A stretch of DNA of 64,000 nucleotides from Escherichia coli (GTDB taxonomy: Bacteria > Pseudomonadota > Gammaproteobacteria > Enterobacterales > Enterobacteriaceae): the NCBI RefSeq assembly GCF_050320075.1, contig NZ_CP190018.1. One strand, given 5' to 3'. Both the position numbers and the translations under genes were made by a program. The notes beneath the pieces were generated by a model. The model was given only the letters and a program-made list of their open reading frames with translations. It did no database searches and was not told the DNA's origin. Below, piece after piece: positions 7,620 through 53,513 of the stretch. The stretch's first letter is position 1. Every line of letters starts with the position of its first letter.

Positions 7620-8333
7620 ATGAAGATTTTTTTGGAGAATCTTTATCATTCTGATTGCTATTTCCTGCCGATAAGAGATAACCAGCAAGACCTTGTCGGC
7701 GTTGAGTTAATTACCCATTTCTCCAGTGAAGATGGTACGGTTCGTATCCCGACGAGTCGGGTTATAGCGCAACTTACCGAGGAGCAACATTGGCAATTAT
7801 TTTCAGAGCAGTTGGAATTACTAAAATCATGCCAACACTTTTTTATTCAACATAAACTCTTTGCTTGGCTTAATTTAACGCCACAAGTGGCTACTTTATT
7901 ATTAGACAGGGATAATTACGCAGGCGAACTATTAAAATATCCGTTTATTGAACTGTTGATTAATGAGAATTACCCGCATCTCGATGAAGGAAAAGATAAT
8001 CGCGATCTTTTTTCCTTATCGCAAATGTATCCCCTTGTGTTAGGTAATTTGGGCGCAGGCAATAGCACAATGAAAGCGGTTTTTGATGGTCTTTTCACCC
8101 GCGTCATGCTGGATAAAAGTTTTATTCAGCAACAAATCACGCATCGCTCCTTCGAACCGTTTATTCGTGCGATCCAGGCGCAAATTTCCCCATGTTGCAA
8201 TTGCATCATCGCGGGGGGCATTGATACGCCAGAAATAATGGCACAGATTACCCCCTTTGATTTCCATGCTCTCCAGGGATGCCTGTGGCCTGCCGTTCCC
8301 ATAAATCAGATAACGACGTTGGTTCAGCGATAA
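7620..8333 (+). CDS. ydiV: anti-FlhDC factor, degenerate EAL-domain protein
   Basis: 237-aa ORF, AT-rich gene, matches YdiV. Confidence 0.88.
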   Translation: MKIFLENLYHSDCYFLPIRDNQQDLVGVELITHFSSEDGTVRIPTSRVIAQLTEEQHWQLFSEQLELLKSCQHFFIQHKLFAWLNLTPQVATLLLDRDNYAGELLKYPFIELLINENYPHLDEGKDNRDLFSLSQMYPLVLGNLGAGNSTMKAVFDGLFTRVMLDKSFIQQQITHRSFEPFIRAIQAQISPCCNCIIAGGIDTPEIMAQITPFDFHALQGCLWPAVPINQITTLVQR

Positions 8334-50081: not shown

Positions 50082-50894
50082 ATGATCATTACACGAGCAG
50101 ACCTGCGAGAATGGCGTATCGGAGCGGTGATGTATCGCTGGTTCCTGCGCCATTTCCCACGCGGCGGTAGTTATGCCGATATTCATCATGCACTGATTGA
50201 GGAAGGATATACGGACTGGGCGGAGAGTCTGGTTGAGTATGCGTGGAAAAAATGGCTGGCGGATGAAAACTTCGCGCATCAGGAAGTTTCCTCTATGCAA
50301 AAATTGGCCACAGATCCCGGAGAGAGACCATTTTGCAGTCAGTTTGCCCGCAGCGACGATCATGCTCGCATCGGCTGTTGTGAGGATAATGCCAGAATCG
50401 CAACCGCTGGGTATGCCGCGCAAATTGCCAGTATGGGTTATAGCGTGCGGATTGGAAGTGTCGGCTTTAACAGTCACATTGGCAGCTCCGGTGAACGCGC
50501 ACGGGTTGCTGTAACCGGTAATTCTTCGCGGATAAGCAGCGCTGGAGATAGTAGTCGGATTGCGAATACCGGAATGCGAGTACGCGTTTGTACATTGGGT
50601 GAACGGTGTCATGTCGCCAGTAATGGTGACCTGGTGCAAATCGCCAGCTTTGGCGCAAACGCCAGAATTGCCAACAGCGGCGACAATGTACACATCATTG
50701 CCAGCGGTGAAGATTCAACAATAGTGAGCACGGGCGTGGTCGACTCAATTATTCTCGGGCCAGGGGGAAGCGCCGCACTGGCATATCATGACGGCGAAAG
50801 AGTTCGCTTCGCCGTCGCCATTGAAGGTGAAAACAATATTCGAGCCGGAGTCCGCTATCGTCTTAATGAACAGCATCAGTTTGTTGAGTGCTGA
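50082..50894 (+). CDS. ydhT: uncharacterised protein YdhT with about 15 tandem 9-residue repeats
   Basis: 270-aa ORF; residues about 93-228 form repeats of pattern x-x-R-I-A-x-x-G-x. Confidence 0.85.
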   Translation: MIITRADLREWRIGAVMYRWFLRHFPRGGSYADIHHALIEEGYTDWAESLVEYAWKKWLADENFAHQEVSSMQKLATDPGERPFCSQFARSDDHARIGCCEDNARIATAGYAAQIASMGYSVRIGSVGFNSHIGSSGERARVAVTGNSSRISSAGDSSRIANTGMRVRVCTLGERCHVASNGDLVQIASFGANARIANSGDNVHIIASGEDSTIVSTGVVDSIILGPGGSAALAYHDGERVRFAVAIEGENNIRAGVRYRLNEQHQFVEC

Positions 50895-50905
50895 TAGCTT
50901 TACCT

Positions 50906-52510
50906 TTAATCAAACGAAAGACGCCTACGTGCACGGGAGGCAGGTTTTACGACAGCCCGAGCCATCGCCTCACCAATTTCTGCACATGCCGTAAGTCCCT
51001 GAACGAAAGGCTGGTCGTGCATTAACCAGGGCAACGCGCCGAACGCTACGCGCCCACGAATATCTTCGGGTTGCTGTAACGTATAATCTTCGCCAACATC
51101 AGGGTTTTTATCCCCTGTTTTCTGTAATTGTTCGCGTAGTCCAGGGAAAGGAATATCTTTCACTTTAAGCGGACGCTGCCCACGGGCATCAATAAAAACG
51201 TCAAACGAGTAGCTGTTGTCTTCCGTTTTCAGGACGGTGCGCGACTCATTAATTTCCATTTCGTAGTCTTCACCGAGGGCGAGAATATGAATGATTCCCG
51301 CTTCACGTAAGGCCAGTAGTCGACGAATAGACTCTGAAGGGATTGCCGCATAATTATCGATGAAAACCCGGGCAAGGCCTTTACTGAACCGTTTATGGTC
51401 GTGTTCATTCAGATGTGGAACAATTTCCTGTACTGCTTCATGCAGGCGCAGAATGACATAACGCCAGGGAACAGTATGTTTTTCTCGTTTATTGCGTTCG
51501 ACTTCCTGGAGATTTTTTTCTGCCCAGTCAAATGGGTCGCGTTGTTTGCGCTCGGCAAACCAGGCTTGAGCAAAGGAATCGACATTCAGGCTCTCTAAGG
51601 CTATGCGTTGGCTCCAGCCTGGATCAGCAAACTTGATTTCCTCTACTATCAATCTAAATACCCGATCCAAAAGGCCATATTCGCCTTTTTGAATCTCAGC
51701 ATTTAATGCTTGATCAGTGACGATGTGTAAGGGCTCGTAGGGAATAGGGCAATAGAAATCGGCTTCGGGTAAAATACCCGTGCGCGACATTAACGTAATA
51801 TTTAGCTTTTCACTTGCGTTATCGCGGTGAAAAATGACGTGTTGTTTATCATCTTCAATGAACGAACCATGCTGAATAGCCACTGCCATTGCCGCATCCA
51901 GTCCGCTCAAGGATGTTCCCATAATACCCACGTTACACGCATCGACCTTTGCTTCCATCAGGCCTGACCACGGGCTGGGAAAGTACGTTCTGGTTGCTTC
52001 TTCTTCATCAGGCCAGACGTGACCCGTGGCAATCACCGCTAAATCAAACGTCTCGCTGGGTAAATCCTGATTTGTAGCGAGCATGACGCCAGCATTTGTA
52101 ATTTGCAGATCGGTAACCTGGCATGATTCATAAACAGCCACCGCAAATTTTTGCTGTCGTGCCTGGTCTACTAATCGTAAAAATTGATCGCGGAAATATT
52201 CGCCCAGCAGAATTCGCGGTAAAAACTGACGATCGTGCAAGGTTTCTTTTTTAACGCCATAACGCTGGAGATGGCTGGCTTCTTGCTTTTGTAGCCATTC
52301 GAGATACGTACAATAAATCGGCGGTATTTCAATACTGGCAATATTTGCCAGCATCAGTTTTGAGTTTTCCTCATCACTGTATGGCATCCCGACACCGGCT
52401 TCGTCAGCCTGCTCGAAGATAGAAATAGAAAGTGGAGTTTGTTGCTGTAGAAGCGAGAATAAGGTGTAGATCCCCGTAGGCCCGGCACCCACAATAGCAA
52501 TTTTTTTCAT
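50906..52510 (-). CDS. ydhS: FAD/NAD(P)-binding protein
   Basis: 534-aa ORF with N-terminal GAGPTG dinucleotide-binding motif. Confidence 0.85.
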   Translation of the reverse strand: MKKIAIVGAGPTGIYTLFSLLQQQTPLSISIFEQADEAGVGMPYSDEENSKLMLANIASIEIPPIYCTYLEWLQKQEASHLQRYGVKKETLHDRQFLPRILLGEYFRDQFLRLVDQARQQKFAVAVYESCQVTDLQITNAGVMLATNQDLPSETFDLAVIATGHVWPDEEEATRTYFPSPWSGLMEAKVDACNVGIMGTSLSGLDAAMAVAIQHGSFIEDDKQHVIFHRDNASEKLNITLMSRTGILPEADFYCPIPYEPLHIVTDQALNAEIQKGEYGLLDRVFRLIVEEIKFADPGWSQRIALESLNVDSFAQAWFAERKQRDPFDWAEKNLQEVERNKREKHTVPWRYVILRLHEAVQEIVPHLNEHDHKRFSKGLARVFIDNYAAIPSESIRRLLALREAGIIHILALGEDYEMEINESRTVLKTEDNSYSFDVFIDARGQRPLKVKDIPFPGLREQLQKTGDKNPDVGEDYTLQQPEDIRGRVAFGALPWLMHDQPFVQGLTACAEIGEAMARAVVKPASRARRRLSFD

Positions 52511-52635
52511 TGTTACTTACCTGTACGCATTCTTTCGAATTTAGTGTTATCAGATAAGTTTGGTTGAAATTTTTAGAATTTGAGAAATTTCAGACAGGGA
52601 TGAAAAGGGCGCTAACCGCCCTTGGTTAAAATCTG

Positions 52636-52941
52636 TCAGGCGAGTTTTGCCTGATTGATTTGACTCAGTGGCTCATTGACATCGAAAACTTTGGCGACAA
52701 CTTCCTCAACGCCGAGATTTTTCAGTCGGGCAGTATGTTTTTCCAGATAGGCAAGGGCGCTTTTTTCATCAGTGAAAAGGTAGATCCCACCGGCTTCGTG
52801 GTTCTTTTCACTTTCTGTCCATACCTTCCACAGAAAACCAGGTTCCTGATTAATCGACTCAGCAAGCGGTTCAAGCTGCTCAGCCATTGCGTCGCCAAAT
52901 GGGCCATTAAAAGCAAAATGAAGTTGTAACAAAGTTGCCAT
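52636..52941 (-). CDS. ydhR: putative monooxygenase (dimeric alpha/beta barrel)
   Basis: 101-aa ORF. Confidence 0.85.
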
Positions 52942-53048
52942 AGCGATTCTCCTTCTGATAACGCATACGAAGACAGTGTAAATCTTTTAATGTATTGGAT
53001 ACAGAGAAGAAACAGAGGGAAAAAGGAGAAGACCAGATTAAGAAAATC

Positions 53049-53125
53049 TGGTGCGTCCGAGTGGACTCGAACCACCGACCCCCACCATGTCAAGGTGGTG
53101 CTCTAACCAACTGAGCTACGGACGC
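53049..53125 (-). tRNA. valW: tRNA-Val (anticodon GAC)
   Basis: minus-strand GCGTCCGTAGCTCAGTTGGTTAGAGCACCACCTTGACATGGTGGGGGTCGGTGGTTCGAGTCCACTCGGACGCACCA. Confidence 0.95.
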
Positions 53126-53129
53126 AGGA

Positions 53130-53206
53130 TGGTGCGTTCAATTGGACTCGAACCAACGACCCCCACCATGTCAAGGTGGTGCTCTAACCAACTGAGCTAT
53201 GAACGC
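53130..53206 (-). tRNA. valV: tRNA-Val (anticodon GAC)
   Basis: minus-strand GCGTTCATAGCTCAGTTGGTTAGAGCACCACCTTGACATGGTGGGGGTCGTTGGTTCGAGTCCAATTGAACGCACCA. Confidence 0.95.
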
Positions 53207-53232
53207 AACGTTGTAGGTGACAACGGGGACGA

Positions 53233-53261
53233 ATATTAGCGGCAGAGTGGGAAGGTGGCAA
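53233..53261 (-). promoter_or_regulatory. candidate sigma70 promoter of valVW
   Basis: minus-strand TTGCCA-17bp-TAATAT followed by GC-rich discriminator, about 20-30 nt upstream of tRNA 5' end. Confidence 0.45.
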
Positions 53262-53513
53262 GAGGCAAAACGTATTTTTCTGCGGTATTTCGACCGTTTG
53301 CAGAGCTTTTAAGCAAATTGGCTATATTTTGTTGATTTGCAAGGGCGATTTTTATTCAGGATCGCATTTACATCTGACACAACCCAATAATCTGTGTATC
53401 AGAGTTTAAACAGAGTTGTTTGCCACCATCTCAAATCTGTCGTGGATAAATCCTTCGTAGCCTTTACACTTAGGTAGCAATAAAGGCACACAGATGCAGC
53501 AAAGGAATAAATC

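Follow-up and report, generated by a model that had tools for sequence, protein, structure and literature searches.

The 64,000-nucleotide window analysed here, from Escherichia coli (RefSeq assembly GCF_050320075.1, contig NZ_CP190018.1), carries two adjacent minus-strand genes, ydhS and ydhR, whose products both bear oxidoreductase or 'monooxygenase' labels, and it raises the question of what each protein does and whether the two act together. Both genes are already known and annotated, yet their function is still unassigned. A full-text literature search by gene name, locus tag and accession found no physiological function assigned to either protein, as the original prediction for this locus had stated, and no paper giving specific functions for both was found. 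Our analysis adds three points: ydhS and ydhR are not a conserved pair or unit, the name given to YdhR is over-confident, and YdhS resembles FzmM-type N-hydroxylases. The overall picture towards which we lean is one of independent, separately transcribed core genes, with YdhS a single-component class B monooxygenase that most likely N-oxygenates an amine. In the window, the two coding sequences are:

50906..52510, minus strand: ydhS, 534 amino acids, a protein binding flavin adenine dinucleotide (FAD) and nicotinamide adenine dinucleotide (phosphate) (NAD(P)), predicted class B flavoprotein monooxygenase
52636..52941, minus strand: ydhR, 101 amino acids, a ferredoxin-like protein of the dimeric alpha+beta barrel superfamily, identified by open reading frame and by Pfam, NCBIfam and PDB matches

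The 534-residue FAD/NAD(P)-binding protein and the 101-residue alpha/beta-barrel protein of the original prediction are both borne out by these reading frames and by family models. YdhS matches the NCBIfam equivalog model PRK09897 over its full length (res. 1–534; 1107.9 bits, cut-off 783), and its residues 5–164 match Pfam PF13454 (NAD_binding_9; 108.3 bits, cut-off 21.8, expectation value (E) 5e-31). YdhR matches Pfam PF08803 (ydhR; 142.2 bits, cut-off 27.1, E 5e-42), NCBIfam PRK11118 (169.6 bits, cut-off 103), and the solved YdhR structures (PDB 1WD6, 2ASY and 2HIQ; E 1e-63). A 2.6-kb query spanning both genes (50700-53300) is covered to at least 80% at one place in 5400 of 5426 complete E. 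coli genomes. The ratio of nonsynonymous to synonymous substitution rates (dN/dS) against a divergent Escherichia locus, L013, is 0.077 for ydhS and 0.082 for ydhR, which argues that both are real genes under strong purifying selection. The two genes belong to the uncharacterised part of the E. coli core genome.

Fold, motifs and proposed activity of YdhS

We built an AlphaFold2 model of YdhS and counted motif residues using 82 diverse relatives. The model has a mean predicted local distance difference test score of 95.1 and a predicted template modelling (TM) score of 0.93. A Foldseek search of the PDB places the L-aspartate N-hydroxylase FzmM first (PDB 8cp5/8cp2; E 1e-22, TM 0.75), followed by the ornithine hydroxylases KtzI and PvdA with TM ~0.5; the matches after FzmM comprise ornithine, lysine and diamine N-hydroxylases. 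Both structure-comparison programs rank class B monooxygenases best, and the YdhS family profile detects class B flavin-containing monooxygenases as well as 8cp2 by sequence. FzmM is monomeric, and its FAD and NADPH (reduced NADP) domains hold between them a large substrate domain made of helices (PMC10404684). YdhS has in common with the nitrosuccinate-forming FzmM/CreE enzymes (PDB 8CP2, 8CP5) this overall architecture, including the large helical domain, which in the YdhS model consists of helices inserted after the strands of the NADPH domain (res. ~266–403). FzmM is the only match that covers this domain, through an alignment of 473 residues. The siderophore-type N-hydroxylases (SidA, PvdA, KtzI, DesB, NbtG, lysine 6-monooxygenase) differ in being ~100–130 residues shorter, with a small substrate domain, so that only 330–360 residues align with YdhS, and none of the siderophore-biosynthesis neighbours of such enzymes is found at ydhS.

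The nucleotide-binding motifs are conserved throughout the family. In the FAD motif GxGxxG/A, Gly8 and Gly10 are invariant (82/82) and position 13 is Ala or Gly in 68 members; an acidic residue closes the second strand (Glu33 in 74 of the 82, Asp in five more). The ATGH motif at residues 161–164 follows (Thr162 73/82, Gly163 82/82, His164 77/82), then a second dinucleotide motif, G198-x-S200-L-S/T-x-x-D205, in which Gly198 and Leu201 are invariant, Ser200 is present in 78 and Asp205 in 81. Ser242 (78/82) and Arg243 (63/82) lie at a strand end, as in NADPH-specific enzymes, and a C-terminal motif, D441-A/C442-x-G444-Q445, retains Gly444 in all members and Gln445 in 75. Asn56 is likewise invariant and sits 12 residues past the conserved aromatic Tyr44, an arrangement reminiscent of Trp51 and Asn62 of FzmM, the equivalence being deduced from position and not from an alignment. 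Of the features by which class B enzymes are recognised, the FAD motif, a second Rossmann NAD(P)H motif with an ATG-type linker, and the closest fold are present in YdhS.

YdhS is, with high likelihood, a single-component FAD/NADPH monooxygenase. The FzmM/CreE-like architecture and the N-hydroxylases that follow FzmM among the matches make amine N-oxygenation its most likely chemistry; by this analogy YdhS is an N-oxygenase with moderate likelihood. The catalytic cycle, the N-oxygenation and the NADPH preference are what we infer. Specifically, the N-terminal Rossmann domain of YdhS would carry FAD and the second Rossmann domain NADPH. Once reduced by NADPH, the flavin would react with O2 to give a C4a-hydroperoxyflavin, and this intermediate would transfer a single oxygen atom onto a small substrate that sits in the helical domain between the two nucleotide domains.

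The substrate is probably not L-aspartate. In FzmM, Asn62 lies over the flavin C4a and an arginine cluster holds aspartate (PMC10404684); the aspartate entry chamber is lined by Arg13, 266, 276, 409, 412, 416 and 577 together with Asn413. At position 12–13, YdhS has Thr, Ser, Ala or Gly and not Arg. The conserved charged residues of its helical region are mixed (Asp282, Asp296, Arg321, Asp371 and Arg374), with Arg321 and Arg374 the only basic ones. FzmM also sits in a biosynthetic cluster, whereas ydhS is a lone gene of housekeeping type.

Several points weigh against the assignment of YdhS as an N-oxygenase of the FzmM kind. Sequence identity between the two proteins is just 17–18%. A profile of the C-terminal 300 residues of YdhS, including the helical domain, matches neither FzmM nor any other PDB structure; because this part is without sequence similarity, the aspartate-binding arginine cluster of FzmM cannot be mapped on YdhS. 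FzmM and CreE have a partner lyase (FzmL, CreD), and none is annotated near E. coli ydhS, where the neighbours are ydhT, ydhR, tRNA-Val and ydhQ. The monooxygenase and N-oxygenase assignments are predictions from fold and motifs. Finally, the Pfam/InterPro domain family of YdhS (PF13454/IPR038732) also contains the urate hydroxylase HpyO, a C-hydroxylase.

Gene neighbourhoods offer a further view of the chemistry. A genome scan for YdhS relatives, seeded with a 17-sequence alignment, gave loci from 80 species at 40–86% identity, each taken with 8 kb on either side. Among distant relatives (~40% identity), recurring neighbours include:

about 9660-10500 in L066, L069, L070, L073, L074, L078, L079, L080 and L084: MOSC-domain genes of Rhizobiales
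about 9650-10190 in L077, L081, L085, L086, L087 and L089: DUF1543 (PF07566) genes of sphingomonads

At these nine loci, a MOSC-domain gene adjoins the YdhS-like gene at its 3' end. Seven of the nine MOSC genes are convergent with their neighbour, and of seven loci inspected, five show an overlap of ~15 nt between the two genes; the L080 MOSC gene runs in the same direction as the YdhS-like gene and overlaps it by 4 bp. Members of the MOSC-domain family reduce N-hydroxylated compounds. Genes that look like tdh and kbl by eye stand beside the Rhizobiales MOSC gene and are probably unrelated to YdhS. At the six sphingomonad loci, the DUF1543 gene shares its strand with the YdhS-like gene and has a 4-bp overlap with the end of that gene, likely forming a two-gene operon, and three of these loci have a gene for catalase HPII within 3 kb; a catalase gene occurs at seven of the 80 loci in all, in several taxa. 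This MOSC, catalase and DUF1543 context lends weak support to N-oxygenation. No lyase is present among the identified neighbour families of the 80 loci, no neighbour family extends beyond 15 of them, and the contexts of two distant relatives (P0339 and P0348) are uninformative. P0348, which is 28% identical to YdhS, has no PDB relative detectable by sequence.

These data also bear on other chemistries. YdhS could hydroxylate carbon in a heteroaromatic compound, a reading that we consider unlikely. It draws on HpyO of Xanthomonas, a hydroxylase of urate that depends on FAD and NAD(P)H and comes from a distinct family with many paralogues (PMC4562309). The likeness to YdhS lies in this description and in the match of YdhS to PF13454, a family that also includes HpyO. 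HpyO genes sit with urate-catabolism genes, whereas the recurrent neighbour families identified near YdhS relatives are not purine-catabolic, in a survey that did not search specifically for urate-catabolic genes; moreover, all of the best solved structural matches of YdhS are N-hydroxylases. No functional paper on PF13454 or COG4529 turned up in the literature.

A reductase or oxidase role (disulfide, quinone or ferredoxin reductase, or NADPH oxidase) without oxygenation is quite improbable. The 82 members have no conserved cysteine pair, with a maximum of 47/82 at one position and at most 27/82 at any other. Class B monooxygenases head the results of both programs, the helical domain being covered by FzmM alone, and the invariant Asn56 probably falls where class B enzymes have Asn, Asp or Glu over the flavin.

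A more ambitious version of the N-oxygenase assignment, to which we give a similarly low probability, would add a third branch to the FzmM/PcxL-like N-oxygenases, with YdhS as its founding member; the branch would comprise ~1000 clusters at 50% identity, widespread in Enterobacterales and Alphaproteobacteria and nearly always encoded by a lone gene, and the housekeeping task of the E. coli enzyme would be to N-hydroxylate an endogenous amine or to oxidise it further. If so, E. coli would produce N-hydroxy or nitro compounds, or nitrite, aerobically and by a route so far unrecognised, and the Rhizobiales MOSC neighbours would be the matching N-hydroxy reductases.

As the more general N-oxygenase that we favour, YdhS would add N–O chemistry to E. 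coli primary metabolism, and such an activity might explain two published observations: the Keio mutant of ydhS better withstands type VI secretion attack by Agrobacterium, with successful complementation, and azidothymidine (AZT) represses ydhS 16-fold. Other reports are that Prc cleaves YdhS in vitro, the protein being nevertheless probably cytoplasmic, and that in Klebsiella a ydhS point mutation arose during lactic-acid adaptation while a ydhS deletion had no phenotype. Papers of 2020 and 2024 class YdhS as 'unknown', and 'YDHS' in PMC3521201 is a yield symbol, not the gene. The likeness to the 2023 FzmM structure turns the description 'FAD/NAD(P)-binding protein' into a concrete, testable hypothesis.

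One variant of the protein is of separate note. A 404-residue 'partial' YdhS (P0019; 99% identity) represents 496 Shigella sonnei sequences, and ydhS may be truncated in that lineage.

YdhR and its monooxygenase label

YdhR is a small ferredoxin-like alpha+beta barrel protein of a strongly conserved orphan family. The model has the ferredoxin-like β-α-β-β-α-β order, and the published structures show a homodimer. Across 19 homologues from Gamma- and Betaproteobacteria, ranging from Escherichia to Neisseria and Photobacterium, 46 of the 101 positions are invariant and include many Trp, Tyr, His, Arg and Asn residues. Conservation this extreme argues for a precise molecular function.

The label 'monooxygenase' is an unverified, fold-level guess from weak fold resemblance. 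YdhR has the ferredoxin-like fold in common with ABM-type oxygenases (ActVA-Orf6, SnoaB, YgiN) and gives no match to them at the sequence level: a Pfam scan at E ≤ 0.01 returned PF08803 alone and no ABM family, and the YdhR family profile found only YdhR structures in the PDB. Fold scores against the ABM-type enzymes are equalled by those against non-oxygenases. Papers that use the term do so solely by citing the 2005 structure paper, and no report of a YdhR activity was found in the literature searched. The name, which lacks an experimental or strong structural basis, is thus an over-annotation spread over thousands of genomes.

By analogy at the level of the fold, YdhR may work as an enzyme without a cofactor, with a redox-active aromatic compound as its substrate. 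We give a substantial, if minority, chance to the alternative that it is not a monooxygenase and is instead an isomerase or tautomerase, or a small-molecule-binding or stress protein that merely has the ferredoxin-like barrel fold. The extreme conservation, Trp, Tyr, His, Arg and Asn included, suits an active site and tells against this alternative, as does the resemblance of the residue types to those of ActVA-Orf6. Under uranyl and acid stress, YdhR has been reported to rise 3.4-fold, together with WrbA.

Linkage between ydhS and ydhR

The original prediction left open whether ydhS and ydhR are linked beyond their adjacency here; phylogenetic comparison revealed no conserved linkage. When the 80 YdhS-relative loci were searched with YdhR by tblastn, ydhR was found nearby in one, the Escherichia locus L013. 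Elsewhere each gene stands alone. YdhS orthologues (68–69% identity) are lone genes in three unrelated neighbourhoods, in Yersinia massiliensis, Klebsiella oxytoca and Leminorella, and YdhR orthologues (66–77% identity) are lone in four different neighbourhoods, in Citrobacter amalonaticus, Neisseria zoodegmatis, Photobacterium and Raoultella. Few taxa appear in the lists of both families. The pairing of ydhS and ydhR is therefore merely positional.

On a stretch identical to this one, the RefSeq order is ydhY-ydhV-ydhW-ydhX-phsC(ydhU)-ydhT on the plus strand, followed by ydhS, ydhR and two tRNA-Val genes on the minus strand and then by ydhQ and mdtK; this annotation, together with ARAGORN, confirms the predicted site between the ydhY operon and the tRNA-Val pair. 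The flanking features are:

50082..50894, plus strand: ydhT, last gene of ydhYVWXUT, from its open reading frame and RefSeq annotation; convergent with ydhS
53049-53125 and 53130-53206, minus strand: valW and valV, a tRNA-Val(GAC) pair identified by ARAGORN and the Rfam tRNA model

In Enterobacter, Lelliottia, Citrobacter werkmanii and C. youngae, valW leads to ydhS after 120–230 bp without ydhR (L026, L028, L036, L037, L060, L061, L012 and L017, about 7780-8000, compared with 52942-53048 of the window). A segment of ~450 bp comprising ydhR, its leader and a hairpin is found at this site, next to a tRNA gene, in Escherichia only. Either it is an Escherichia-specific insertion beside the tRNA gene, or it was lost elsewhere.

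Cooperation of the two proteins, whether as flavin reductase and small oxygenase of one system or by catalysing successive reactions in a pathway, is very improbable: the genes are adjacent, on one strand, similarly labelled and both core in E. coli, but their adjacency is confined to Escherichia, valW leads straight to ydhS in Enterobacter and Citrobacter, YdhS has a complete single-component architecture with its own NADPH domain, a terminator-like hairpin lies between the genes, and the conserved component adjacency of two-component flavin-dependent monooxygenase systems (reductase plus oxygenase) is not seen here, so that the idea is largely refuted by lack of co-occurrence. Recognising ydhS and ydhR as unrelated neighbours averts a misleading two-component-oxygenase annotation.

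Three side observations concern the divergence and distribution of the genes. Between 50906-52941 of the window and 7566-9605 of L013, the synonymous substitution rate is 1.03 for ydhS and 0.37 for ydhR, ~3-fold higher in ydhS; codon bias, sampling noise in the short gene, or recombination could account for it. Two YdhR-like proteins, P0193 and P0222, carry unexpected labels, Naegleria gruberi (74% identity) and Vagococcus (64% identity). Likewise, ydhS genes of 66% identity lie on 3–4 kb contigs labelled Brucella tritici and Hyphomicrobiales metagenome-assembled genome (L023, L033). Such oddly labelled relatives reflect either horizontal transfer or contaminating enterobacterial contigs.

Transcription and intergenic elements

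The sequences around the two genes hold the following elements:

52511..52635, minus strand: 125-bp ydhR-ydhS intergenic region, presumed site of the ydhR terminator and the ydhS promoter
52516..52522, minus strand: Shine-Dalgarno-like AGGTAAG upstream of the ydhS ATG, read from the sequence
52545-52557, minus strand: inverted repeat TTATC-T-GATAA in the ydhR-ydhS gap, inside a 25-nt block identical in L013
52605..52623, minus strand: hairpin AAGGGCG-GTTAG-CGCCCTT followed by TTCATCC, candidate intrinsic terminator of ydhR
52942..53048, minus strand: 107-bp valW-ydhR spacer, necessarily the site of the ydhR promoter if that gene is transcribed apart from the tRNA genes
52949..52954, minus strand: strong Shine-Dalgarno sequence AAGGAG, 7 nt upstream of the ydhR ATG, read from the sequence

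The 125-bp gap is exactly as predicted; the separate promoters that the original prediction gave the two genes are likely, on mixed evidence. In their favour, the candidate terminator hairpin lies directly after the ydhR stop codon, where a 61-nt RNA stretch folds with −17 kcal/mol (z −2.3 against shuffled sequences), and in L013 its stem is conserved and its loop differs. The hairpin was missed by a terminator pattern scan because its T run is short. Genomic SELEX (systematic evolution of ligands by exponential enrichment) detected a weak peak of sigma-S holoenzyme between ydhR and ydhS (PMC5493296), and ydhS stands alone in other genera. Against them, a sigma-70 pattern scan found no promoter-like site in the gap before ydhS. 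Upstream of ydhR the same scan found nothing, its sole match being the promoter region already known for valVW; one study states, as data not shown, that ydhR does not share a transcript with valV and valW (PMC2190699). A hairpin-like site at 53052-53032 overlaps the 3' end of valW.

In the ydhR-ydhS gap, the block TCAACCAAACTTATCTGATAACACT is identical in L013, and a CAGGT..TAA context just 5' of the ydhS start recurs in Citrobacter and in L013. The inverted repeat TTATC-T-GATAA, a possible regulator site, is conserved within Escherichia only and not upstream of ydhS in other genera; when the sequences preceding ydhS were aligned across four genera, no regulatory motif emerged convincingly as common to them.

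One candidate RNA was considered and rejected. The Rfam model RF02194 (HPnc0260 antisense RNA; gathering score 59) scores 112 bits at 52925-53087 on the plus strand, opposite the beginning of ydhR, the ydhR leader and the 3' portion of valW, and matches weakly a second time at 53129-53165 on that strand. Over its 3' third the model simply complements the T-arm and acceptor that are conserved in tRNAs, and elsewhere it is AU-rich; the match is probably a model artefact and not an E. coli RNA.

At the other end of ydhS, its stop codon and that of the convergent ydhT are 11 bp apart (50895-50905), which leaves no space for separate terminators. The ydhS-ydhT pair is described as one of overlapping transcripts (an 'excludon') in a 2025 study (PMC12288877).

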